A stretch of DNA of 64,000 nt from a virus (taxonomy: Duplodnaviria; Heunggongvirae; Uroviricota; Caudoviricetes): the IMG/VR virus record IMGVR_UViG_3300033463_000003; one strand, 5' to 3'. Shown one piece after another: positions 44,951-57,733 of the stretch. The notes below the pieces were generated by a model. That model did not search any database, was not told the origin of the DNA, and worked only from the letters and a program-made list of their open reading frames with translations. How positions within the stretch are numbered: position 1 is the stretch's first letter; every line of letters begins with the position of its first letter. Both the position numbers and the translations under genes were made by a program.

Positions 44951-46879
44951 ATGATGAAAAACAAAAAAGTTATTAAAGAAATGCTTAACTTTCAAGACTT
45001 AACTGAAGAAGAAAAAAAGTCTAGAGGTATATTGGGACGTTTATACGGACCATGTGCTTCTATCATCGCCCCGACAAGAAACGGACGTAAGTATTCTGAT
45101 GAAGTCTGGGAAAAAGTATTTAATGAAAATGAAATTGTAAAGGAAATGTTTGCAAATGGTGGAATTCCTATGGAACTTGACCATCCAGCAGACAGGGAAG
45201 AAACTTGTAGTGAAAAAATTGCTGCTATGCTTCCTGAGCCACCAAAGAAAGATAATGATGGCCACTTAATTTGTTATGTTGACCTCATTGATACTCCTTG
45301 TGGTAGAATTGCTTATCAATTAGCAAAGTACGGTTTCAAGCTCGGAATTAGTTCTAGAGGCACTGGTGATTTATATACTGATGCTGATGGAAATGAATCC
45401 GTTGACCCAGATACCTATGACTTTACAACATTTGACCTTGTTCTTCTACCAGCAGTTAAAGATGCTAGATTAACAATGACTGAATCATATAAGCCTTCTA
45501 ATGAAGCTGGATTCAAAAAAGCCCTTGTTGAATCTCTTGAAGTTGCATCTGATGCTGATAAAAGAGTTATGGAAGAAACTTTAAAGGACTTAAATATCAG
45601 TTTAACTGAAGAAGTCTGCGTTGAAGATGTTCCATATGAAGATCCAGAAGAACCTATTACTGATTTATTAATTGAAGAAACCAGTGAAGAGACTCCTGTG
45701 ATTGAAGAAACCGAATCTACTGAGGAGGCCAATGAACCTTCTGAGGAAACTAGCACTGAAGCTCCTGTTGAAGAAGTGTCAGAAGAACCATCTGAAGAAG
45801 AAAACATTGAGCCTGAAGTAGAAGCTGGTGAAGAAGCAGTTGTAGAAGCTCCAAAAGCAGAAACAATTGGCGACTTAGTTAAAGAATTAACTGAATATAA
45901 TGACGATTTAAGTGTAGAATTTAAACCATTAGTCATTGAAGATAAAGAATACGAAATTGCTGGATTAGAGTTTGATAATTCTGAAGAAGGTAAAGTCGTA
46001 ATTACAATTGGTTATAACTCTGAAAAGGGTGATAATATAGATAGTAGCGAAGAAAAGGTTGAAGGTGAAGAACCTGCAGAACCTGCTACAATTGCTGATG
46101 ATGAAACTTCCACAAGTGAAGAAGTTGCCTCTGAAGAAGCTGTCGATGACGGGAACGAAGAAGTAATTGAAAGCCTTAAAGAAATGATTCGTCAGAAGAA
46201 TTTACTTGAGCAAACAGTTAGTGATCTTAAAGCTGCTAAAACAGTTGGCGATGCCGAGGTCGAACATCTGAAAGAGGAACTTAACAAATACAAAACATCA
46301 TTTGCAAGAGTAAGCGAGTTGGCCGCAGATTCTAAACGCTTTGAAAAAGAAGTTCAATCCTTAACTGAACAATTATCTAAGAAAGATTCCGAAATAGCGG
46401 AATTAAAACAAGCACATAAAGTTAGCTTGACAGAAAGTGCAAAAGCTAAAGCAGATGAAGTTAAAGTGCTTACTGAAAAACTTGCCACTAAGGCACAAGA
46501 AGTTGAAGATGTTAAAGTACAAGCAACTGAAAATGCTACCGCACTCAGAAAAACTATTAATGAACGCACAGAAATTGCTAAGAAATATAAAGCAAAATAT
46601 GAAAGCGTTGTTAGACGTTATATTGAGTCAAAAGCTTCTATGCTCGGTGTCAGACCAACTGAAATTACCAGCAGATTAAATGAACATTATTCTTTAGATG
46701 ATGTTGATAAAGTCTGTGAAGAATTATTAGATATTAATTTCAATACATTACCATTTAATACTGGTCGTGGTGCGAAAGTAAATATCAAAGAGTCTAATGA
46801 ACGTAAGGTTCAAGCCTCTGATCCTGATAATGGTTATGAAATCGATGATGATTTATTAATCTTAGCTGGATTGAAATAA
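44951..46879 (+). CDS. Prohead protease (T4 gp21-like) fused to acidic/coiled-coil scaffold
   Basis: NGRKY, ELDHP, DTPCG, LGISSRGTG, FDLVLLPA; long coiled-coil C-terminus. Confidence 0.9.
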   Translation: MMKNKKVIKEMLNFQDLTEEEKKSRGILGRLYGPCASIIAPTRNGRKYSDEVWEKVFNENEIVKEMFANGGIPMELDHPADREETCSEKIAAMLPEPPKKDNDGHLICYVDLIDTPCGRIAYQLAKYGFKLGISSRGTGDLYTDADGNESVDPDTYDFTTFDLVLLPAVKDARLTMTESYKPSNEAGFKKALVESLEVASDADKRVMEETLKDLNISLTEEVCVEDVPYEDPEEPITDLLIEETSEETPVIEETESTEEANEPSEETSTEAPVEEVSEEPSEEENIEPEVEAGEEAVVEAPKAETIGDLVKELTEYNDDLSVEFKPLVIEDKEYEIAGLEFDNSEEGKVVITIGYNSEKGDNIDSSEEKVEGEEPAEPATIADDETSTSEEVASEEAVDDGNEEVIESLKEMIRQKNLLEQTVSDLKAAKTVGDAEVEHLKEELNKYKTSFARVSELAADSKRFEKEVQSLTEQLSKKDSEIAELKQAHKVSLTESAKAKADEVKVLTEKLATKAQEVEDVKVQATENATALRKTINERTEIAKKYKAKYESVVRRYIESKASMLGVRPTEITSRLNEHYSLDDVDKVCEELLDINFNTLPFNTGRGAKVNIKESNERKVQASDPDNGYEIDDDLLILAGLK

Positions 46880-46905
46880 AAATTTAATTTATAAAGGAAA
46901 TGATT

Positions 46906-48273
46906 ATGAGACAAAATTTACTTGAAACTTATTCTCGTCAATTAAAAGTCGCAGAAGCTTATGTCGCAAAGAATTTCGATAAAACAGTCTCTGCTAATAC
47001 AAAATTGACAACTGCTGTCTTATTAGACAACACAAACAGATGGATGACAGAAGCTTTCAGTACAACCGCAACTGCTAGAGCAGATATGGGCGATTGGAAG
47101 AAATTCTGCTTAAACCTCACAAACATCGCTGTTCCATCATTAATCGCTAATGATTTAGTCATCGTTCACCCAATGACTTCTTACAGCGGATCTGTTGCAT
47201 ACTTAAAGTATGTCAGCAAAACTGATAAGGGTGGAGTCGTTAAAGGACAAGAATTCAACTCTGTTTTCGGTCTTGGTGAAATGAGCCCAGCTCGTGAAAA
47301 ATTCACAAGCCAAGTCATCGTTGAAGAAGTCGGTTCTAACGGCGAATTACTTTTACACCCAGTTAAGAACGGTCGCTTCGTTAACCCAGAAGATGAATCA
47401 AAACATGACGCTAAAGTCAAACGTGATGGTAAAGATGTTTACCTTGATGTCATCGGTGAAGGCGAAGAAGCTCACCTTGATGTTGCAGCTGGTGAAAAAG
47501 TTGCTTACATTGCTGCTGAATTCCAAATGGAACAAGTTCCAGCAATCGACATCCCAACAATTGGTCCAAAACTCGAACACATCGCTTTAGTTGCAGAACC
47601 AAGACGTATTGCTGTCCGTTATGACCAAATCACTGCTTTCCAAGCAAAAACTGACTACGGCTTCTCACTCGATAAACAAATCGCTGAACAAGCTTGTGGT
47701 GAATTAGCATACGAAATCGATACAGAAATCGTTGCAATGTTAGCTGAAGGTGCTGGTAAAGCTCTTCCAGAATTAACATGGTCCAAAGTTCTTCCTGTTG
47801 GCGTTAGCAAATTCGAACACTACAATGGCTTCTTAGAAGTTATTGAAAAAGCTCGTGCTATCATCTACAAGAGAACACAAAAATTCCATCCTAACTATAT
47901 GGTCATCTCTTCTGACGTTCTTCCAGTTTTAAGATTCGTTAATGGATTTACAGCTGTCAAGAATGCTAAGATGAATGGTCCTTATAAAGTTGGTGAATTA
48001 GATGGTTTATCAATCTATGTTTCCCCAATCCTTAAAGATGGCGAATTCTTCTTTGGATTAAACGGCTCTGACATGATGTCATCTGCTGGTGTCTATGCTC
48101 CATATATGGCTATCGTTCCAACACAATTACTTGGAACACCAGATGGTGGTTTAGCACAAGGCTTCTCAACTTGGTATGCCAAAGCCTTACTCAACACTAA
48201 TTTATTAGTTGCTGGTAAGATCATTGGTGGCGAACCATTCGAAGGCACCACTTACGGTGTCATCAATGGCTAA
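46906..48273 (+). CDS. Major capsid protein (T4 gp23-like)
   Basis: LIANDLVIVHPM, ELAYEIDTE, GVYAPYM; high-expression codon bias; follows scaffold. Confidence 0.92.
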   Translation: MRQNLLETYSRQLKVAEAYVAKNFDKTVSANTKLTTAVLLDNTNRWMTEAFSTTATARADMGDWKKFCLNLTNIAVPSLIANDLVIVHPMTSYSGSVAYLKYVSKTDKGGVVKGQEFNSVFGLGEMSPAREKFTSQVIVEEVGSNGELLLHPVKNGRFVNPEDESKHDAKVKRDGKDVYLDVIGEGEEAHLDVAAGEKVAYIAAEFQMEQVPAIDIPTIGPKLEHIALVAEPRRIAVRYDQITAFQAKTDYGFSLDKQIAEQACGELAYEIDTEIVAMLAEGAGKALPELTWSKVLPVGVSKFEHYNGFLEVIEKARAIIYKRTQKFHPNYMVISSDVLPVLRFVNGFTAVKNAKMNGPYKVGELDGLSIYVSPILKDGEFFFGLNGSDMMSSAGVYAPYMAIVPTQLLGTPDGGLAQGFSTWYAKALLNTNLLVAGKIIGGEPFEGTTYGVING

Positions 48274-48307
48274 TTAAACGCCAAGTCGATAAAGCAATAA
48301 AAAAATT

Positions 48308-48334
48308 AGAGGTTCCTTCGGGAGCCTCTTTTTT
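48308..48334 (+). terminator. Intrinsic terminator after the capsid gene
   Basis: AGAGGTTCC-TTCG-GGAGCCTCT-TTTTT. Confidence 0.9.
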
Positions 48335-48394
48335 ATATTAAATCTTAGCTGAATTTGCTAAATTATACAAAGAGTAAAGGAAAATTATTTTAAT

Positions 48395-51223
48395 ATGACT
48401 ACTTATGCAGCATATAATTTAAATGAAGATATTAGAAAAAAGAGTTCCTCAGGGGGAGTTTTTTACGAATTAGCTAAATATACTATTGAACATGACGGCT
48501 ATGTTTTTGGAGCAGCTTGAAATAAAGATTGATTTGTTGATATATGTTATATTAAGAAGCTAGAAGACTTACCAAAATTAATGGGGTCTAAATATGTAAA
48601 AGCTGATAATAAAAATACTTTTAAAGAATGTAAAGAATTTTTAGATTCTGGAAAACAAGTTTTATATTCTGGTACTCCTTGTCAAATATATGCATTAAAA
48701 TTTTTCCTTAAAAAAGATTATGATAATTTATTAACTGTTAGTGTTGCTTGTTTTGGGACTACTCCGCTTGTTGTTTGAAAAGACTACTTAGAAACAATTA
48801 AAAGACCAGATGCTGAAATAACAGAAATAAACTTAAGAGATAAATCTGATACTAATTGAAATAATTATAAATATACTATTAAATATTCTGATGGAAAAAT
48901 AATCTCAGAAAACCATTTAAATAATAAATATTCAAAAGCATATATAAGTGCTGGTTATTTTAATAAACCATGTTATAATTGTATAGCCAAAAAAGAGTTA
49001 AAATCTGATATTTCTATTGGTGATTTTTGAGGAGTTCAAGAAGCTTTGCCAAAAATTGATGCAAAGCTTGGAGTTAGTTTTATTATCTGTAACTCAAACA
49101 AAGGTGAAAAGATTATTAAAGCTCTTAATAATCTAAAGCTTGAAGAAATTAAAGATATAAATAAAGTTAAAAAATTTAACCGTGGAATTCAAGAGACTCC
49201 AGGAACTAAAGAGACTACTTATAATAAAAATATTTTTAGGAAAAAAGTAGCAATAGTTACAATGAATTTACATTTTAATATTGGAACAGCTTTACAAGCT
49301 TATGCCTTACAAAAAGTTATTTTAGATAATGGTTATGATTGTGATGTAATTACATGAGCTCGTAAAGATAGACTTCATTTTTGTGATACCTATATTAAAA
49401 TGAGAATTTTACCTACTGCACAAGATTATGATAAAATAAAAGAATCTGACTATGATATATTTGTAGTTGGTAGTGACCAAATTTGGAGAAAAAACACTAG
49501 TTTAAAAGACTATAAAGAAAACTATATTAATTACCCATTTTTAGGATTTACTGCCAACTGAAGCAAAGTTAGATTTTCATATGCAGCTTCATTTGGAACT
49601 TCTTGACAATATGATAAAGCAGAAGACGAAAAAATAACAAATATTTTAAAGCAATTTAATGCACTATCTACCAGAGAATTAAGCTCAATTATAGACTGCG
49701 AAGATAAGCTTGGCCTAAATTTTGAGCAACATATTGACCCAACTATGTTGCTAAACAAAGAAGACTACCTAAAGCTTTGTTCAAATATTACTGCAAATCA
49801 TAATAAAAATATTTTTAAATATATTTTACATGAGACAACAGATAAAACTAATTTTATTAATGAAAAAGCAAAAAAATTAGGATTACCAATAACTACACAT
49901 AATAAACTATATGTGGTAGACTGGCTTGCTAAGATGCGTGATACTAGTTTAGTAATTACAGATTCTTTCCATGGTGTGATTTTTTCTATTATTTTTAATA
50001 AACCATTTATTTACTGAAATACTAGAGACAGTGGTAAAGCTCGTTTTGAAACTATTGAAAAATTATTTAATATCCAGAATAGACAAATTAAAGATAATTT
50101 TACTATTACTGATGAATTGCTTAAACCGGCTAATATTAATTTAAATAATAACAGACAAAAAAGTTTGGATTATATATTAAAAAATTTGGCCGCTGTACCA
50201 CAACAATTAACTATTAACCTTTCACAAAATAAATTAAACTGGCAAAAAAATAATAAACAAGCCTGAATGTTATTTTTAAGCTCAGATAACTATATTTATT
50301 ATGTATTAAATGTTTATAAAAATTTATTAGATCACAATACTAAATATGCAGTATGCTGTGGTTATACAGAAGATGTTAGTCAAACAACTGTTAATATATT
50401 AAATAAATGTGGGATTATTACCTTTAAACTTGATACTAAAGCTATTTTGCATGAAAATATTAAACTTAGGGGCATATCTAATTGAATTAAAGCTTTTACA
50501 AAACTTGGCTTATTGAAGAACCAGCTTAATTTAGATAAAATGATCTATCTAGATTCTGACTTAGGAATTTATGATAATATTGATGAATTATTTAATAAGC
50601 CACATATGAGTGCAGTGCTAGATGGTGCGCCACTTCCAAATAGAAAACCTGGACCATATCAAATTGGAGATTCTATTTTTTGTTCTGGTCTGTTTGTTTG
50701 AGATTTTAAGAATAATAATAATGATGCTAATAAATTATTACAATTATTACCAAAGCTTCCAAAAGATGTAGAATGACATGACCAAAATGTTTTAAACTAC
50801 TACTATAAAGACTGACAAAATCAAAAAAATTTACATTTAGATTATACATATGGTCTTATGACTACTATTCCTAAATTTAAATTTGTTAACCCAGTTAGAG
50901 GTAAAAACTGACCTAAAGTTATACACTATATAGCTGGCCAAGGTGAGAAAACAAAAATACCATTTATAAATCAAAAATTTAATCTTCAAAGTTGATGTGA
51001 TATGCTATTAATAGATGATTACTATACTGAAATAAATAATAGCATTATTGCATTAAAACAATTATATGATTTTGATTTGCCTCTTATTAGTACTCAAAAT
51101 ATTGTACATAAAAAAGCAGATAAAATTGCAGCCAAAGAAGAAACTATAAAGTGAGCAGAAATAGAACAAAAGAAAAAAGATATACGTGCAGATGGCAGAC
51201 CAAATACTTACCTATATTTTTAA
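48395..51223 (+). CDS. 942-aa fusion: FrhB-like (F420 hydrogenase beta) + polysaccharide pyruvyl transferase + GT8 glycosyltransferase (17 TGA=Trp)
   Basis: Single frame with no TAA/TAG; SSSGG, GSKY, GTPCQ, IGDF(W)G; GSDQIW, YAASFG, DPTML, TDSFHG; FTKL, YLDSD, DQNVLN, VIHY. Confidence 0.88.
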
Positions 51224-51232
51224 GGAGATTAT

Positions 51233-52021
51233 ATGATAAAAAAATACTTCGGAATTATTTCTTGGTTCCCAGATGATGAACCGCATAGGGGCCAAAGACT
51301 CAGTAGACTAAATCAAACATTTAAACATTTAACTGATTTATTTGGAACAGAAATAGAATTTTTAATTATTGCTCAAAACTGGAAAGATTATAAGGTTCCT
51401 GAATTTGTTAAGCACACTATAATTCATAAATTTGATAAGCTTGGTATTCTTGGAGCCAGAAAAATGCTACGTGAAAAATTCTTAGAAAGTGACTATGATT
51501 ATCTAATTATGTGTGATGATGATATTGTATTAAAACCAGAGATTGAAAATGCACCACAAAAATATATGGAAGAATTAGACAAATATCCACAAGGTTTTTC
51601 ATTTGTTAGATATGGCTGGTCGCTAACTTTTTGTGCAATTTCTAAATATATTTATGAAAAAGAGCCTATGGTTGATGTAGACCCAGAAAAGAATGAAGGA
51701 TATGAAGATATGGTATTTCCTTTACTTCTTCATTATAAATACCCACAAAATGAATTCAAAACAAGTAATTTATTTAGTTTCCACCAACATGAGGCAAAAT
51801 TCAAAAAAGATCACAAGTCTACATGGATGGTAAGAGGTATTGATTATAATGAAATACAAATAAATACTGATACCTATACTAAAAATTTTAAAGAGGGTAA
51901 TTTTAATATCGAAAAAATCAAAGAGGATATTAATAAATACTGGGCAGAAAGAAAAGCACAAAACAGTTATAACCCAAAACATGTTGCTGATGGACAAGAT
52001 AATTGTTTCTTATATTTCTAA
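51233..52021 (+). CDS. GT-A fold (GT2-like) glycosyltransferase
   Basis: GILGARKML, YLIMCDDDIVL, YEDM. Confidence 0.7.
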   Translation: MIKKYFGIISWFPDDEPHRGQRLSRLNQTFKHLTDLFGTEIEFLIIAQNWKDYKVPEFVKHTIIHKFDKLGILGARKMLREKFLESDYDYLIMCDDDIVLKPEIENAPQKYMEELDKYPQGFSFVRYGWSLTFCAISKYIYEKEPMVDVDPEKNEGYEDMVFPLLLHYKYPQNEFKTSNLFSFHQHEAKFKKDHKSTWMVRGIDYNEIQINTDTYTKNFKEGNFNIEKIKEDINKYWAERKAQNSYNPKHVADGQDNCFLYF

Positions 52022-52108
52022 CCTAAATATGCTATAATACATAGTATTATTTACTTTTATTTGCTAAATTAATTGATATGAACGCCAATAGGAGGAGTTT
52101 TATAGAAG

Positions 52109-52834
52109 ATGACTAAAAAAGATGTTGCCGATGAAATAAAACTTGAACTTACTGGCCAAATCTTAGAACTTGAAATCGATGACTCAACAATTGACCTTAT
52201 AATTAGTAAGGGATTACGTGAGCTTCAAAGATTCTGGGATGAGTCATCAATGATAAGCGTTCCATATGCTTCTTGTATTGATTACTCAGGAACACCATTA
52301 GAAGATTCAAGCTCAATTGTTAAGGTATATAGAACGCAAGGCTTAGGTGTTGCAGGTGGTACAACTGATATATCTGTAAACTCTGACCCACTATATATGC
52401 AACAATGAATGATCTTCAGTAATGGTGGAACAATGTATAATTTAAATGATTATGTAATGAATTATGCAGCTTGGAGTACCTTATCCCAAATCAAAAATAC
52501 AATTTCTACAGATATGGCATTCAGAGAGGACAAGCACAATCACAAGCTCTATATTAATTGTGCTATGGGAGCTCCTAGCGGAATTACAATAGAGTATATA
52601 CCAAAATTACAAAAAGTTGAAGATATTAAAAGTGATTATTGAATTGATATACTAATTAAATTATGCTTAGCGTTAACAAAAATAACACTTGGCAGAATTA
52701 GAACCAGATTTACCCAATCAAATACACTTTGGGCACAAGATGGTGAAACAATGCTAAGTGAAGGAACCACTGAGCTTAAAGAATTACGTGATATGCTCAC
52801 ATCGAATTCTAATTTAATTTATCCAATTGATTAA
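52109..52834 (+). CDS. Neck/head-completion protein (gp13-like), 2 TGA=Trp
   Basis: Track fragments joined at TGA 52406 and 52640; LGRIRTRF...DGETMLSEG. Confidence 0.7.
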
Positions 52835-52853
52835 TAAGGAGAGTTGAATACCT

Positions 52854-55367
52854 ATGGAAAAACAACCAATTACAAAATTTGACCTTGAGGCTGCATTCAA
52901 AGCTTTAGACGAAATTGAAGTGCCTGCTGTTGAAGGTGGAATTATCGCTAATAAACCAGCTGTTTTATTTGAAGATATTAAAAGAGCTGATAAAACTTCA
53001 TTATTACTTGAAGATTACTATGATTTAGGCAGTAATGAAGATTTAGAACAAGCTAAAGAAGATCGCGAAGCAGAAGTTGCAAAAGCTAAACTTGCTAAGA
53101 TTGAAAAAATCGTTGACCTTGATGCTGAAACAGAAGATGACATACAACCTTCATATGTTGGCAAAGTTATTATTCAATGCCCACAATGTATGACACTCTT
53201 CTACAAAAACCCAGAAGATATTGAATATTCTGAAGAAAACCCAGATGTTGTTAATATTAATGAAACATGCCAACACTGTGGAAATAACTCAGGCTATACA
53301 TTAATCGGTAAGGTTGATAATGTTTCTGAAGAAGAAGCTGATAAGTATGAAGGTGGCGAAGAAGCTGCTGAAGAAGATGACCTTGACCTTGACTTTGGTG
53401 AACCAACTGAAGAAGTTGATGCTGAAGGAACTGGCGAGGCTGAAGTTGACGAAGAAGATGCTTTTGATTTAGATATTGAAGAAGAACCAGAAGAAGAGGC
53501 TGAAGAAGAAGTTAAAGAATCACTTAATGAAGATGCTGAAAGTGATGCTGAAGAAGAAGTTGAAGAAACTGCTGAAGCTGAAACCCTTGGTGAATTAGTA
53601 GATGAATTAACAGTTGCCGAAGAAGAAACACCTGTTGAATTTAAGCCAGTTGAAACACCAGAAGGTGAGGAGCTTGAAGTTAAAGGTTTAGAAATTGAAA
53701 CAGAAGAAGATCCAGAAAAGGTTGTTATTTCTGTTGATGTTGAAGCTAAAGAAGAAGGCTCTGAAGAAGCTAATGAAGAAGCAGCTGAAGAAGAAAAAGA
53801 AGAAGAAGAAGAACCTGTTGAAGAAAGCTTAAATGCTTCTGAAGAACAAAAAGATGCTGAAGAAGGTTCTGAACTTAAAACTGAAAATGAGTCTGAAAAT
53901 TTAACACTTAATGAAGAAACTGTTAATGAAGGTGTTGATAAAGATTTAGATGCAAAATTAAAAGCACATAATGATTATATTGCTTATCTTCAACAAATGA
54001 TTAAGCAAGAAGAAGAAGCTTTAGCAAAAGCAGACAATGAAGAAGTTAAAGCAGCTATTCAAAGAAGATTAGATGCTTTTGAACAAGATTTAAAAGATGC
54101 TTTGCCAGAAGCTGTTAAAGAAGAAGCTGAAGTTGAAGAATTACCAACTCCAGAAGAAGCCGGAGCAGAAGAAGTTAAAGAGGAAGAAAAAGTAGAAGAA
54201 AGCTTAAATGAAAGTTTAAATAATTCAGAAGTCCAAGCAGAAGCTAAAGAAGAAAGTGAATTAGCAACTGAAAATGAATCTGAAGAAAAAACACTCAATG
54301 AAGATGTTTCTGAAATTGAATCAGCTCTTACACAATTCTGCAACAGTTTAGATGAAAGCTGCGAAGGTGAAGAGTGTAAAGAATGCAAAGAAGATCTCAG
54401 CACTGAAATGAAATTAGCTGAATACGAAGCATCATTACCAGAATCATGTGCAGAAGGTAAAGACTGTAAAGAAGAAGTTTGCCCAAAATGTGGTAAAGCT
54501 CCTTGTGAATGTGAAAGCTTAAAAGAAGCTTCTGCTAGTGAATTTGAAGTTTCTGATGCTGATTTTCACAAGATGATTAACAGCCAATCATTTAAAGATT
54601 TTAGTGAAGAATTAGAAGAACATATTAATGAAGAACATCCAGCAATTGAAAGTGAACAAGAATATCAAGGTGTTGATAATCAAGTAGTTCCTTGTGAAAC
54701 AGAATTATTAATGACTCACTCTGAAGATGAAAAACCATTAGATTGCAAAATGGAAAAACCAGCCCTTGAAGAGCCAGTTGCTGGTGAACAAATTGATGTT
54801 AAAATTACTGAGGATACATTAACTGAATCTCCATCTGATATCTGCAATATGGCTGTTTATAAAGATGTTATTAATAGAATTGAACATGCTGGTGAAAGTG
54901 CTGTTGAAGAAGATTTAGAAGATAAGCATGATGAAACAGCTGAAAAAGAAGAAACAGATAGTGCAGAAGAAGTTGATAAAGTTATTAAAACTTGGGAAAG
55001 CTTAGAAGATTTACATGAAGCTTCATTAGATGATCATATTTCTGATTATTTAACTGAAGTATATTCTAATGTTGATAGCTTCCAAACAACAGCTTGCTCC
55101 CAAGAAGATAATAAATTAATTGTTGAAGGAAATATCTTATTCAAATCAGGCAATTCAAGAAAAACAACATTTGAATTTACCGAAAATAAAGAAGCTGAAA
55201 AAGAAAATGCCTCACAAGTTATTTATGAAGGCTTAAATAAAGATTTCGCTGATGCTCCAGCATTTACTTTAAAAGGTATTGCTGAAGAAAACGGAAAAAT
55301 TCTTGTTACAGAAAGCTTTGGCTATAAATATACAATTAACAATACTTTAGTTGAAGGTTTAAAATAA
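52854..55367 (+). CDS. Very acidic putative prohead-core/internal protein with Zn ribbon
   Basis: CPQC..CQHC, repeated ESLNE, internal ~30-aa duplication. Confidence 0.7.
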   Translation: MEKQPITKFDLEAAFKALDEIEVPAVEGGIIANKPAVLFEDIKRADKTSLLLEDYYDLGSNEDLEQAKEDREAEVAKAKLAKIEKIVDLDAETEDDIQPSYVGKVIIQCPQCMTLFYKNPEDIEYSEENPDVVNINETCQHCGNNSGYTLIGKVDNVSEEEADKYEGGEEAAEEDDLDLDFGEPTEEVDAEGTGEAEVDEEDAFDLDIEEEPEEEAEEEVKESLNEDAESDAEEEVEETAEAETLGELVDELTVAEEETPVEFKPVETPEGEELEVKGLEIETEEDPEKVVISVDVEAKEEGSEEANEEAAEEEKEEEEEPVEESLNASEEQKDAEEGSELKTENESENLTLNEETVNEGVDKDLDAKLKAHNDYIAYLQQMIKQEEEALAKADNEEVKAAIQRRLDAFEQDLKDALPEAVKEEAEVEELPTPEEAGAEEVKEEEKVEESLNESLNNSEVQAEAKEESELATENESEEKTLNEDVSEIESALTQFCNSLDESCEGEECKECKEDLSTEMKLAEYEASLPESCAEGKDCKEEVCPKCGKAPCECESLKEASASEFEVSDADFHKMINSQSFKDFSEELEEHINEEHPAIESEQEYQGVDNQVVPCETELLMTHSEDEKPLDCKMEKPALEEPVAGEQIDVKITEDTLTESPSDICNMAVYKDVINRIEHAGESAVEEDLEDKHDETAEKEETDSAEEVDKVIKTWESLEDLHEASLDDHISDYLTEVYSNVDSFQTTACSQEDNKLIVEGNILFKSGNSRKTTFEFTENKEAEKENASQVIYEGLNKDFADAPAFTLKGIAEENGKILVTESFGYKYTINNTLVEGLK

Positions 55368-55437: not shown

Positions 55438-55947
55438 ATGTCTGATACACCAAATAACTATGGCATATTATTAAATAAAAATATTAAATTGCATAGAAAC
55501 TGGTTTAAGCAAATGACAAAGCTTATCGGTATCAACTGCATTTATAAAGCTCCACTACCTGGAAAACATTTTGACACACATGGTGATTTAGATGCTGACT
55601 ACTTCCCAGGAAAATTAGTTGGCTGCATTTTTCAAGATCATCCAGACCAAAAAACATTAAAGAAAATGGGATGGGTCGCTGAATTACAAGAAGGCTCATC
55701 TGTTATCCATGTTCCATATGATTTACCAGATTTACAAGTAGGCGCGCTTTTTATCGTACCTAGCGGAATAGACAATGCACAAGGCCGTGTTTTCCGTGTA
55801 ATTAGTATGCAAAATATTATGGTTTATCCTGCTTCTATTGCCTGTGAAATTGCTCCTGAATATATTGATGATGTTGAACCAGTACTAACAAGAGACTTTG
55901 AAGATACTAATTTTACAATGCTTGTAGACCATGAGGAGGATGACTAA
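55438..55947 (+). CDS. Putative head-closure/neck protein (gp14-like)
   Basis: 169 aa beta-rich; position in the neck module. Confidence 0.5.
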   Translation: MSDTPNNYGILLNKNIKLHRNWFKQMTKLIGINCIYKAPLPGKHFDTHGDLDADYFPGKLVGCIFQDHPDQKTLKKMGWVAELQEGSSVIHVPYDLPDLQVGALFIVPSGIDNAQGRVFRVISMQNIMVYPASIACEIAPEYIDDVEPVLTRDFEDTNFTMLVDHEEDD

Positions 55948-55948
55948 T

Positions 55949-57733
55949 ATGAATAAATTTATATTAAGTGAATTAGCCTCAAAGTTTATTTTAGCTGAAA
56001 AGTATATTTTAACTGAAGCGACTGCTGAAGAAAAAAATAAAGCTAAAGAAGCATATTTAAAAGCTAAGGATGCCTTTAATAAAATATATCCAAATGCAAA
56101 AACTTTCCTAGAAGAAGCAAACGGCTCTAAAGAATTAACTACTGATGAAAAGTTTATTAATGAAATTAAACCATTAGAAAAAGAAATTGCTGCTGGAACT
56201 ATTACTGATGTTCTTGATTTAAAGAATAAAGGCAAAGAATATATTGATAAAGTATCAGCCAAACTAGATAAAATCCCAAACTTTGAAGAAAAATACCCAC
56301 AAATTGACCAACTAGTTTTTGATATTAAAAACCTTATTGAAAAAGGTAAAGATGAAGATATTAAAGGTAGACTTGGTAGTGAGGTTGAAAAACTTGGTGC
56401 AACTGTTGATGAAGTTTTTGGTAGCAGTGAAAAAGCTGATGCTGATAAAACAGTTAGCGAAAATGCATTAAAAAATCTTAATAATATAAATGATTTTGAC
56501 ATTTCTGCAGCATTAGAAGCTATGGATAATGGTGATGAAAAAGATGAATTAGCCAATGCTGTATATGGTGAATTAGGAAATATTACTACTATATTAACTG
56601 ATATTACTAAAACTATTACTGATGCTGTTGGTAAAAAAGATACATCTGATGCTGCTTTAGCAGCTTTAAATGATGCACTTACTGACGCATATGATAAATT
56701 AAAAGAAAATAAAAAAGCCGCATCATTAGCAGATTTAAGTAATAAAAATAAGAGTGCTGAGGAAAGTGAAGATGCTGCACACCTTATAGACCTATTAAAA
56801 GCTGCAAAGAATGATCCAAAAGCATTTGAAGCTGCACTTATGTCAATATTAAAATTAGCTTTTGGTTCTAATGATGACCTAATTAACGCTATTTTAAAAT
56901 TAAATGTTGATGGTGCTATTGCTGATGAAATTATACATTATGGCCCAGATGCTAAACAAAATCCATTTTTATATTTCTTAGATAAAAACCAAGATTTATT
57001 AAAAAATGGTAGTATAACGCCTGAAAAATATAAGATAATTCATAATGCTTTTGTTAAAGGTAATGCTTCTGGAGTATTTGGTGATGCTGATTTAAGAGGT
57101 ACTGGTAGATTTGGAAACTCTGATATTATTTTTAGCGGTTCACTTTATGACTATGGCCCAGATGATATTACTAAGTACTTTAATTTAAGGGAACAAGTAA
57201 TTAACCTATTTAATGGCTCAACAAAATTTAGTAATGATTTATTAGCTGAAAAATATCAAAATAATATTAAAAACTTCTTTGCTGATTTAATGTATGAAGG
57301 CGGCGATTTATTTAACCCAAAAGGTAGTGCTGCTGGACCTTCTGCAAATAGACAACTTAAAGGACTTAAAGCAATTGAAGATGAATTAAAAAATTGTTTT
57401 GATGAAGAAGCACTTAAAAATAGCAAACCAAAAGGAACAACAGCTGTTAATGAAAAAGTTGTTAAAAGCTGGATTGAATCTCTTGGTGGTGATAAGAGAA
57501 AAGTTGGTCAACTTATCATCTACTTAGCAACAAGATTTGTTTCTGCTTCAAGTGCAAAAGCTGTTCAAGAACTTTTGGATAAATATGCCGAAACAAGAAA
57601 AGTCCCGCTTGATGCTGCTAATATTGTACCACTTAGTACAACAATTGGGAAACCTGATATTACAGATAAAAATCTTGCTGATGTAATTAAACAGATTGCA
57701 GAAGCAGCAGGACTAGAAGGTGCTGGAGCTTAG
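55949..57733 (+). CDS. Hypothetical helical protein
   Basis: ATG 55949 after GGAGG; N-terminal FILSE/FILAE/YILTE repeats. Confidence 0.75.
   Translation: MNKFILSELASKFILAEKYILTEATAEEKNKAKEAYLKAKDAFNKIYPNAKTFLEEANGSKELTTDEKFINEIKPLEKEIAAGTITDVLDLKNKGKEYIDKVSAKLDKIPNFEEKYPQIDQLVFDIKNLIEKGKDEDIKGRLGSEVEKLGATVDEVFGSSEKADADKTVSENALKNLNNINDFDISAALEAMDNGDEKDELANAVYGELGNITTILTDITKTITDAVGKKDTSDAALAALNDALTDAYDKLKENKKAASLADLSNKNKSAEESEDAAHLIDLLKAAKNDPKAFEAALMSILKLAFGSNDDLINAILKLNVDGAIADEIIHYGPDAKQNPFLYFLDKNQDLLKNGSITPEKYKIIHNAFVKGNASGVFGDADLRGTGRFGNSDIIFSGSLYDYGPDDITKYFNLREQVINLFNGSTKFSNDLLAEKYQNNIKNFFADLMYEGGDLFNPKGSAAGPSANRQLKGLKAIEDELKNCFDEEALKNSKPKGTTAVNEKVVKSWIESLGGDKRKVGQLIIYLATRFVSASSAKAVQELLDKYAETRKVPLDAANIVPLSTTIGKPDITDKNLADVIKQIAEAAGLEGAGA

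Follow-up and report, generated by a model that had tools for sequence, protein, structure and literature searches.

Encapsulin cargo enzymes, which are unrelated to one another and are encoded near the shell gene, have in common a short peptide at the C-terminus, borne on a flexible linker. In T4-type phage heads, internal proteins are targeted by N-terminal signals and a protease. The capsid-binding domain of Hoc has been found fused to an enzyme domain in T4-like phages (PMC10385173), and in mycobacteriophages, capsid and tail-tube subunits have been reported to carry glycans at their C-termini (as cited in PMC12619734). Here, a stretch of 64,000 nucleotides from a giant cattle-gut phage (IMG/VR record IMGVR_UViG_3300033463_000003), referred to as the window, was analysed. 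In this phage and in at least 12 related phages, otherwise unrelated glycan enzymes end in the tail [YF]LYF. To our knowledge, a common address peptide on phage glycan enzymes has not been described previously, and this novelty holds even if the target of the enzymes is DNA or the host wall.

Late glycan genes in a variable slot of the head module

The cassette is encoded on the plus strand between a major capsid protein of the T4 Gp23 type (46900..48273; PF07068, E 1e-26) and an Ad2-like head-tail adaptor (52109..52834; PHROG 211, E 1.4e-8), which form the upstream and downstream borders of a variable slot; its placement between capsid and neck genes in an earlier note on this DNA was thus correct. 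The capsid protein was matched by 67 related loci in IMG/VR with 57-88% identity, and the nearest isolate by this protein is Bacillus phage SP-15 (30% identity). The related phages are T4-like, with genomes of 200-270 kb, and their capsid/adaptor slot is either empty or occupied by variable cassettes. In relatives without a cassette the adaptor gene lies 124-250 bp 3′ of the capsid gene. Paralogues of BspA-type LRR surface proteins are also found in this slot, and in other lineages a glycosyltransferase lies between portal and protease.

An intrinsic terminator-like hairpin (48308-48329; 9-bp stem with 5 GC pairs), which together with a T-run spans 48308..48339 on the plus strand, follows the capsid gene and is the sole such site in 46800-52900. 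It is followed on the same strand by a promoter-like box, TTTGCTAAATTA (48354..48365; core GCTAAATTA at 48357), which lies 30 nt 5′ of the ATG of the first cassette gene, and a second copy (52063..52071, plus strand) precedes the adaptor gene. The window contains 12 copies of the core, where 2.4 would be expected; most lie directly 5′ of genes, and 11 of the 12 are on the plus strand. The box is probably a late promoter.

The first gene (48395..51223, plus strand, code 4) encodes a 942-aa triple-fusion enzyme. Its FrhB-like domain (aa 3-255, Pfam FrhB_N/C) was matched by PF04422 (E 1.2e-5, 25.7 bits against a cut-off of 22) and PF04432 (E 2.7e-20, 73.2 bits against 23.3), and the polysaccharide pyruvyl transferase domain (aa 295-540, PS_pyruv_trans) by PF04230 (E 3e-29, 103 bits against 25.3). 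A glycogenin-like GT8 domain (aa ~621-905) follows, and then a linker and the tag. The window fusion itself gave no Pfam match to PF01501 (GT8) at E <= 0.01. Its residues 621-942 are 41% identical (E 2e-73) to a stand-alone protein of the related phage L066, which passes PF01501 (37.2 bits against a cut-off of 24.3); the related fusion P0126 has a precomputed PF01501 assignment, and the DxD metal/nucleotide-sugar motif is present in the translation (...YLDSDLG...). The three domains named in the earlier note are thus indeed joined in one protein, the first two by Pfam and GT8 by way of the relatives. The accompanying claim that FrhB-like and pyruvyl transferase genes are normally separate did not hold, as 609 fused homologues were found. 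Since such fusions are very frequent in bacteria, this part of the enzyme is ordinary.

The fusion ORF is open only with 17 in-frame TGA codons read as Trp. TGA does not serve as the stop codon of any gene in the window, and TGA positions 155 and 212 of the fusion align with Trp in 16/16 standard-code bacterial homologues, which justifies this reading. The window fits the TGA-recoded (code 4) gut phages, with no TGA stops and with Trp-position TGA concentrated in late genes; in recoded phages such in-frame codons mark structural and lysis genes (bioRxiv 10.1101/2021.08.26.457843). The fusion has the highest TGA density among the long ORFs of the window (>=200 aa), and the only ORF above it is one of 109 aa with 2 TGA. 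Unlike the TGA-rich cassette genes, the ThyA region is TGA-free. The cassette genes belong to the late class. One TGA, that of Trp624 (50264..50266, plus strand), lies at the pyruvyl transferase/GT8 junction directly before an ATG. Read as stop, this codon would leave the pyruvyl transferase part untagged; read as Trp, it falls within the first strand of the GT8 domain. Five triple fusions keep the junction ...KAW(M/L)..., and in two of the five Leu replaces Met after the Trp, so this is a true fusion.

The second gene (51233..52021, plus strand) encodes a 262-aa GT-A-fold glycosyltransferase of an unnamed, metagenome-only family. No Pfam family was found for it, and none of its 125 homologues has a Pfam domain. 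The AF2 model gives a confident GT-A fold (pLDDT 92.6), and the DDD motif at aa 95-97 is invariant. Foldseek matched the model to AvpGT, TarP and TarS at the top (TM about 0.46), and to SpsA, with probability 1.0 and TM 0.46-0.51 over these matches. Weak GT2 matches were seen in just 4/38 family members (best 7.9e-5), beside weak TAGT and GT25 matches. For the enzyme called GT2-like before, the GT-A fold with its DDD motif is therefore retained, and membership in GT2 is dropped, with no PF00535-type match found.

The C-terminal tail, its carriers and its dialects

The fusion protein ends in IRADGRPNTYLYF before the stop codon (51185-51223) and the GT-A enzyme in HVADGQDNCFLYF (51983-52021), so that the near-identical ends of two unrelated proteins reported earlier are borne out. 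The tags proper, ADGRPNTYLYF (51188..51220, plus strand) and ADGQDNCFLYF (51986..52018, plus strand), both follow ADGxxNx[YF]LYF-stop. Seven of the last 12 residues are identical, a level reached by 3 of 184,262 non-homologous ORF pairs from the window and five related genomes. DNA duplication was ruled out as the origin of the matching ends: the 3′ ends of the two genes are dissimilar as DNA and use different codons for the common residues, which excludes recent duplication. The tag is borne on a polar, flexible linker, and that of the GT-A enzyme is modelled as a weak beta-hairpin (AF2 pLDDT 57-76; strand residues 250-251 and 258-259). A third, internal copy, ...NPFLYF... in a 600-aa ORF (55931-57733), can be attributed to chance, since relatives have NPFVKY and NPFAQF and do not keep it.

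The earlier note had proposed a search of related genomes for proteins with such ends. This search placed the tag on interchangeable, non-homologous enzymes: at least eight carrier types end in the tail in at least 12 related phages. The carriers are GT8, the ~260-aa GT-A enzyme, a GT2-Stealth and another GT-Stealth fusion, Stealth alone, a TagF-like protein, FrhB-pyruvyl transferase, pyruvyl transferase-GT92 and a ~230-aa unknown protein. Of 240 database homologues found for the two window proteins, 65 likewise have this end. The consensus is [CTS][YF]LYF. Of the signal as first proposed, recurrence on other enzymes was confirmed; its ADG..N part proved limited to the GT-A and GT8 carriers, and [YF]LYF is the core. 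Fusions of a pyruvyl transferase to a glycosyltransferase, such as that of the window, have lost the internal tag and keep one tag only. The cytidylyltransferases that supply donors in the cassettes have no tag. A complete 232-kb relative has the tag on two cassette ORFs only. An IMG/VR tag match in L071 was out of frame and was discarded.

The bacterial homologues of the tagged enzymes do not have the tail. In bacterial FrhB-pyruvyl transferases the protein ends with the final helix of the domain; in those of the phages, a further ~30 residues (70% polar, 23% Lys) lead to the tag. By sequence comparison, the tag is an add-on to the enzyme. In about 185,000 species genomes no enzyme with the strict tag was found; the tag pattern gave 52 matches, and the long ORFs among them all belong to one family of Bacteroidales outer-membrane beta-barrels, in which it is the last strand that fits the pattern, so the tag was rejected as a bacterial signal. 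Comparison of a tail profile with PDB chains returned nothing relevant.

In other phages, orthologues of the enzymes carry other tails, GLPDEWWKEDF or aromatic/Gly-rich. Stealth orthologues end in YLYF (L067), NFWSY (L104) or GLPDEWWKENY (L099), and pyruvyl transferase-GT92 orthologues in YLYF (L102) or SYFRGW (L112). In each case the tail matches that of the GT-A enzyme in the same cassette, and 14 cassettes are concordant. As each tail matches those of its cassette neighbours, it is specific to the phage and not to the enzyme. Capsid residues were considered as determinants of these dialects; the 34 capsid columns that separate A-dialect from C-dialect phages track clade structure, and the candidate was set aside.

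Possible partners and sites of action

Being portable, borne on a polar flexible linker, absent from bacterial homologues and co-varying within cassettes, the [YF]LYF tail has the properties of a docking peptide. This role is well supported; docking itself, its partner and the acceptor are inferred. We favour, at a probability of roughly 0.45, the reading that the portable C-terminal peptide gathers the late glycan transferases at a common site, which would most likely be the assembling virion, and that a glycan coat on the particle would result. In this mechanism, the tail would be a short aromatic beta-hairpin or strand on its flexible polar linker, and would bring the transferases that a swappable glycan cassette produces late to the capsid or to another head protein. 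Either the 262-aa GT-A enzyme or the GT8 domain would start the glycan and the other would extend it, and the FrhB-like/pyruvyl transferase module would add a pyruvate-derived acidic group. Relatives have sugar-phosphate (Stealth) or glycerol-phosphate (TagF-like) modules instead of it, so that all versions of the cassette would make an anionic glycan.

The late TGA-rich genes, their position in the head module and the LRR surface-protein genes in the slot make the capsid a plausible target. Some observations speak against docking at the virion: several glycosyltransferases in large cassettes are untagged (L113, L015, L105/L110), the cassette of the L099 lineage adjoins nucleotide-metabolism genes, and the LRR proteins of the slot have no tag. 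A C-terminal extension of the capsid protein is present in four of nine tag-bearing phages (the window and three others), absent in five, and present in 0/17 empty-slot loci; without a clean association with the cassette, this extension, which would be an acceptor of the mycobacteriophage kind, was rejected as a universal acceptor. A receptor-gene search comparing complete genomes with (n=3) and without (n=2) the cassette gave only 66 core clusters, confounded by phylogeny, and was uninformative because too many genes are clade-specific.

The tails could instead bind each other or a small hub and form a self-contained multi-enzyme complex with a substrate other than the virion, for example a lipid- or wall-linked host glycopolymer (teichoic-acid or capsule-like) that is altered late in infection. 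Like-binds-like contact would give the concordance of tails directly and would spare a mobile cassette the need for a matching receptor, but L020 and L108 have one tagged enzyme each, which points to a receptor outside the cassette. TagD/TagF-like proteins, TarP/TarS-like GT-A enzymes, Stealth and CsaB-type pyruvyl transferases do build Gram-positive wall polymers and capsules; however, no flippase, transporter or polyprenyl-phosphate transferase genes were found in the examined cassettes, and lateness of the TGA-gated genes would leave little time for remodelling of the cell surface. Attachment to the membrane could be aided by the Lys-rich linkers and aromatic tip, although the tails of the GT-A enzymes are not basic and those of dialect B are acidic. 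Such a complex is on balance unlikely. Loading of the enzymes into the head as cargo, in the manner of encapsulins or of T4 capsid targeting, would have them delivered with the DNA and let late-only (TGA-rich) proteins act at the start of the next infection. Encapsulin cargo has just this anatomy, with a short C-terminal peptide on a flexible linker, common to unrelated enzymes that are encoded beside an HK97-fold shell gene. We consider this improbable, since the tag is unlike the known encapsulin motif, T4-type targeting relies on N-terminal signals and a protease and not on C-terminal tags, and a use for polymer-building transferases after injection is not evident.

It was also considered that the enzymes hypermodify phage DNA with sugars, with the tail as a clamp- or replisome-binding motif by which they ride on DNA. 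The tails (N-x-[YF]-L-Y-F, ...YLDLF...) resemble the clamp-binding peptides QL[SD]LF and QxxLxF, and SP-15, the nearest isolate by capsid protein, has DNA with sugar-phosphate modified bases. A ThyA-family gene is present in a complete relative, and weak TAGT matches occur in the GT-A family (L015 protein, E 0.005; 4/38 alignment members, E >= 0.028). Known phage glycosyltransferase clusters glycosylate hmC, and some of these adjoin structural genes (bioRxiv 10.1101/2023.12.21.572611). Against these points, clamp (PF02916, PF02768), PolB and TET/JBP genes were not found in the complete relatives, and no ORF outside the cassette has the tag, replication proteins included, while a polymerase-like cluster ends differently; docking to clamp or replisome was rejected on these grounds. 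The separation of the late cassette genes from the TGA-free ThyA region, and a pyruvyl transferase and TagF-like polymerase chemistry not known on DNA, further make DNA modification very improbable. Finally, the tail may be no address at all: it could govern degradation or stability, anchor the proteins to membranes in a generic way, or be a structural cap that each enzyme needs in order to fold. Hydrophobic C-termini can serve as degrons or anchors, and the AF2 confidence of the tail is low; but phage-specific dialects that co-vary within cassettes would be unexpected for a degron or anchor, four different folds would hardly need one cap, and the bacterial homologues function without it. Of all the explanations weighed, this one has least to recommend it.

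If docking at the virion is true, it would explain by what means swappable enzymes are recruited by large gut phages for the decoration of their particles. This would bear on recognition between phage and host, on interactions with mucus and the immune system, and on how stable virions are in rumen and gut. The tail would then be a natural tag of 6-12 residues for enzyme loading or display on T4-like capsids, and the dialects a rare sequence-readable record of enzymes that work together.

Comparison with described systems

Bacterial FrhB-like/pyruvyl transferase fusions of polysaccharide loci combine these two domains in this order as well (609 fused homologues), usually with an extra N-terminal 4Fe-4S ferredoxin domain and with no linker or tag, whereas the phage forms lack the ferredoxin domain and have a tag or a fused glycosyltransferase. 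Clamp-binding motifs (QL[SD]LF) and the reported contact of T4 alpha-glucosyltransferase with gp45 are comparable in the hydrophobic C-terminal penta- or hexapeptide on a flexible tail, which would recruit DNA glycosyltransferases; here, in contrast, no clamp gene was found, replication proteins are untagged and the genes belong to the late head-module class. The C-terminal glycogenin peptide that recruits glycogen synthase, and the COM- and dockerin-type docking elements of assembly-line enzymes, are similar in that a priming enzyme of GT8 type is joined to its successor through a linker-borne terminal peptide, and in that matching pairs give specificity, as the dialects may do here. These are pairwise enzyme-enzyme contacts in cells, whereas each phage cassette has one type of tail.

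In the virion glycosylation systems of mycobacteriophages (Freeman et al. 2023, via PMC12619734) and chloroviruses, virus-encoded glycosyltransferase genes also lie beside capsid genes, and the product proposed here would similarly be a glycan on virion proteins. No common enzyme tag is known to have been described for those systems, and the cassettes differ from them in their polymer-type modules (Stealth, TagF-like, pyruvyl transferase). Hoc shares with the tail a T4-like capsid and a modular C- or N-terminal binding element with variable passengers, which include an enzyme, the GDSL lipase of phage PG7; it differs in being a folded domain and not a tail of ~12 residues, with no sequence similarity (PMC10385173).

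Encapsulin cargo peptides differ in having a Gly-Ser-Leu type motif against the aromatic [YF]LYF, and in their shell, which here is the DNA-packaging head of a T4-like phage, to which the tail would bind on the inside or the outside. They are alike in the conserved C-terminal peptide, the flexible linker, the unrelated enzymes, the adjoining HK97-fold shell gene and the interchange of cargo between relatives. It is tentatively suggested, as a possibility that we regard as doubtful, that gut jumbo phages use a lineage-specific C-terminal peptide addressing code to attach interchangeable, horizontally swapped glycan enzymes to the outside or inside of the HK97-fold head, an encapsulin-like arrangement for a customisable anionic coat.

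Recoded reading frame and enzymes of the cassette

Under genetic code table 11, the region 48395-51223 is split into seven ORFs of the same frame, and straight-through translation revealed each break to be a TGA. No ORF of at least 100 aa in the window is terminated by TGA; the in-frame TGAs are concentrated in the structural half, with almost none in the early third. In the long ORF, the TGAs at positions 155 and 212 correspond to Trp in all 16 of the standard-code bacterial homologues aligned, and the remaining ones mostly face aromatic or hydrophobic residues or fall in stretches that the bacterial proteins lack. Reading TGA as Trp in this ORF is justified, and the lack of TGA stops, the structural clustering and the Trp alignment indicate that the window is part of a TGA-to-Trp recoded phage. 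Its capsid protein (46900-48273) is of the T4 Gp23 type, IMG/VR contains relatives of 200-237 kb and a 273-kb contig carries the window's own proteins. The sole polymerase-like signal in the complete relatives is a protein of 445-576 aa with a weak DNA_pol3_alpha match (E 4e-4; G001:71502-72839, G006:89421-91115, G008:9904-11631, G010:85070-86800).

In the 942-aa product, Pfam profiles place FrhB_N/C at aa 3-255 and a pyruvyl transferase at aa 295-540, and over its C-terminal third it shares 41% identity (E 2e-73) with GT8 enzymes that stand alone in relatives. Five triple fusions keep the junction ...KAW(M/L)...; since Leu replaces Met in two of them, barring translation restart, the fusion is genuine. 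The pyruvyl transferase/GT8 junction coincides with a TGA (50264-50266) that is immediately followed by ATG. Under the code in use before the switch, this codon would end translation and leave a two-domain protein lacking the tail discussed below; after the switch, the tailed triple fusion would be produced. The GT-A enzyme (262 aa, 51233-52021) matches no Pfam or PHROG family. Its 125 metagenomic homologues share an invariant DDD motif and its predicted structure is a confident GT-A fold (pLDDT 92.6). The structural matches are generic GT-A proteins (AvpGT, TarP, TarS, SpsA; TM about 0.46-0.51), and GT2, TAGT and GT25 profile matches in the family are weak and scattered.

Between the capsid gene and these enzymes lie a terminator (48308-48329) and, at 48357, a promoter-like box, GCTAAATTA (longer form TTTGCTAAATTA); the head-tail adaptor gene follows at 52109-52834. 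The box has 12 copies in the window against 2.4 expected, mostly directly upstream of genes (+ strand: 11688, 26104, 31633, 38245, 44739, 44835, 48357, 52063, 58785, 61230, 62408), and is probably a promoter element of the phage itself.

A C-terminal tail shared by unrelated enzymes

The fusion ends in ADGRPNTYLYF and the GT-A enzyme in ADGQDNCFLYF, although codons differ and the DNA is without similarity at the 3' ends of the two genes. Identity at 7 of the last 12 residues was reached by only three of 184,262 non-homologous ORF pairs drawn from the window and from five related genomes, this pair among them. The shared ending noticed earlier on these two unrelated enzymes is thus real and beyond chance. 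An internal ...DAKQNPFLYF... in a late 600-aa ORF without family (55931-57733) was discounted as a third copy, its relatives having NPFVKY or NPFAQF.

By capsid similarity, 67 related loci were gathered. The capsid-to-adaptor gap is only 124-250 bp in 17 of them and is filled with 1-10 kb of variable genes in the rest; this slot appears to be a general insertion hot spot. Wherever glycan enzymes occupy it, the transferases terminate in [YF]LYF-stop. The tag was found on GT8 (L020, L025, L066, L067), on GT-A enzymes of ~260 aa (window, L013, L015, L063, L102, L105, L108, L110, L111), on GT2-Stealth or other GT-Stealth proteins (L013, L016/L105, L063), on Stealth alone (L067), on TagF-like glycerophosphotransferases (L015, L111), on FrhB-pyruvyl transferases without (L025, L066) or with GT8 (window, L110), on a pyruvyl transferase-GT92 (L102) and on a ~230-aa protein without assigned type (L111). 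The search of related genomes proposed in the earlier note thus finds the tag recurring on varied transferases. Of the motif suggested there, ADGxxNx(Y/F)LYF, the [YF]LYF core is invariant, but G at -9 and D/N at -6 are typical only of GT-A and GT8 carriers. In the protein database, the ending is shared by 47/120 homologues of the GT-A enzyme and 18/120 of the fusion.

The tag is absent from the donor-supplying cytidylyltransferases of the cassettes and from an unrelated formate-tetrahydrofolate ligase in the L025 slot (PF01268, E 1e-154). In a complete 232-kb relative it is exclusive to the two cassette ORFs. The strict pattern DG..N.[YF][L/F]YF-stop occurs in frame in IMG/VR solely within this phage family. 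One genome per species from about 185,000 prokaryote species gave 52 matches and no enzyme carrying it; the only long ORFs were Bacteroidales proteins of ~294 aa ending ...LDGSxN[LI]F[LF]YF (L241:1925-2809, L251:2668-3552; also L219, L250, L204), which, with a terminal beta-strand signal and a weak outer-membrane beta-barrel match, were set aside as coincidental look-alikes.

The slot also holds BspA-type LRR paralogue arrays of 2 to about 8 proteins, between capsid gene and cassette (L006:13038-20718; L110:768-5114; L016:14804-16647, equal to L105:3556-5399; LRR_5, E down to 3e-61). These candidate virion surface or adhesion proteins have their own common C-terminal module, roughly [DE]FPxFxF...W.... 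Homing-endonuclease-like genes (385-480 aa) are also frequent in the slot (L029, L030, L063, L064, L104, L006), with conserved ends such as ...VEIYDCGQATYVW.. The capsid proteins vary in a 10-20-residue C-terminal extension past ...VAGKIV[AD] (...GGEPFEGTTYGVING in the window), absent in 17/17 relatives with an empty slot.

Tail types and the add-on character of the tag

Within enzyme families, the type of tail tracks the phage and not the enzyme type. Among Stealth orthologues (37-43% identical) the endings are ...NYYLYF (L067), ...TGNFWSY (L104) and ...GLPDEWWKENY (L099), and among pyruvyl transferase-GT92 orthologues (40% identical) ...GYYLYF (L102) and ...NSYFRGW (L112). Neighbouring GT-A or GT8 enzymes match in type: ...NTYLYF for the L067 GT8, ...SQYIGL (L104), ...GLPDEWWKEDF (L099), ...GCYLYF (L102) and ...SSYIGF (L112). 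Tails were concordant in fourteen cassettes with at least two tailed enzymes; one extra L015 protein has an aromatic/Gly-rich-like tail. Such concordance is expected of tails that bind one another or a shared partner. The cassettes of other type (L099:6886-8810, L104:6919-8789, L112:6316-8783) have acidic ...AFTGLPDEWWKE[DN][FY] or aromatic/Gly-rich tails (...SQYIGL, ...SSYIGF, ...NSYFRGW, ...GNFWSY) common to their enzymes, and database homologues add ...YLDLF.., ...LPSLDDYLF and ...NSEDNSWW.

The earlier note took FrhB-like and pyruvyl-transferase genes to be normally separate; with 609 fused matches in bacteria, the fusion is ordinary. The bacterial proteins usually carry an additional ferredoxin domain at the N-terminus and terminate at the last domain helix or in basic tails, whereas the phage proteins lack the ferredoxin domain and carry ~30 extra residues (70% polar, 23% Lys) followed by the tag. 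AF2 models the tail of the 262-aa enzyme as a low-confidence beta-hairpin past the last helix. Pyruvyl transferases joined covalently to a GT have no internal tag and keep a single terminal one; such loss is classically a sign that the separate proteins act side by side. Some cassettes (L020, L108) contain only one tagged enzyme, so either self-association or a partner encoded elsewhere is required.

Candidate targets and known systems

The concordant tails and their add-on character make a docking peptide as such the best reading (probability about 0.7). The earlier proposal that docking is to the capsid fares less well, a capsid coat being only plausible; docking combined with the virion as target is tentative, slightly below even odds. 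In recoded gut phages, in-frame TGA codons mark structural and lysis genes translatable only late (bioRxiv 10.1101/2021.08.26.457843). The TGA density of the fusion ORF (18 per 1000 codons), the highest among the window's long ORFs and exceeded only by a 109-aa ORF with 2 TGA, therefore counts for the virion, as do the slot's position within the head module and the likely surface-exposed LRR arrays in the slot of two relatives. Elsewhere among T4-like lineages, the same GT domain occurs as a fusion to FrhB-pyruvyl transferase that is encoded between the portal and protease genes. Judging from the known activities of these enzyme families, every module type would add negative charge, as a pyruvate-derived group, hexose-phosphate or glycerol-phosphate. 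Against the virion, or neutral, are the lack of the tag on the slot LRR proteins, some untagged cassette GTs and one lineage with the cassette beside nucleotide-metabolism genes. A receptor sought by gene content and by capsid residues tracking tail type was not singled out, phylogeny confounding.

Modification of phage DNA is suggested by some tails that look like a clamp motif, by the weak TAGT matches and by published gene clusters of DNA-glycosylating phages; yet no clamp (beta or gp45-type), PolB or TET gene was found in the complete relatives, no replication protein bears the tail and the cassette genes are of late class, as against the TGA-free ThyA region of a relative. The host envelope would agree with the enzyme repertoire but poorly with late expression, and encapsulin-like loading inside the head would fit the anatomy.

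We are aware of no published C-terminal tag shared by phage glycan enzymes, and the literature consulted on other questions mentions none. Two precedents speak for the virion as target. Glycans on capsid and tail-tube C-termini of mycobacteriophages are reported in work cited by PMC12619734; here the tag coincides with a capsid C-terminal extension in only 4/9 phages, which is against or neutral for the virion. In T4-like phages, passenger domains, one of them an enzyme, are hung on a capsid-binding module (PMC10385173).
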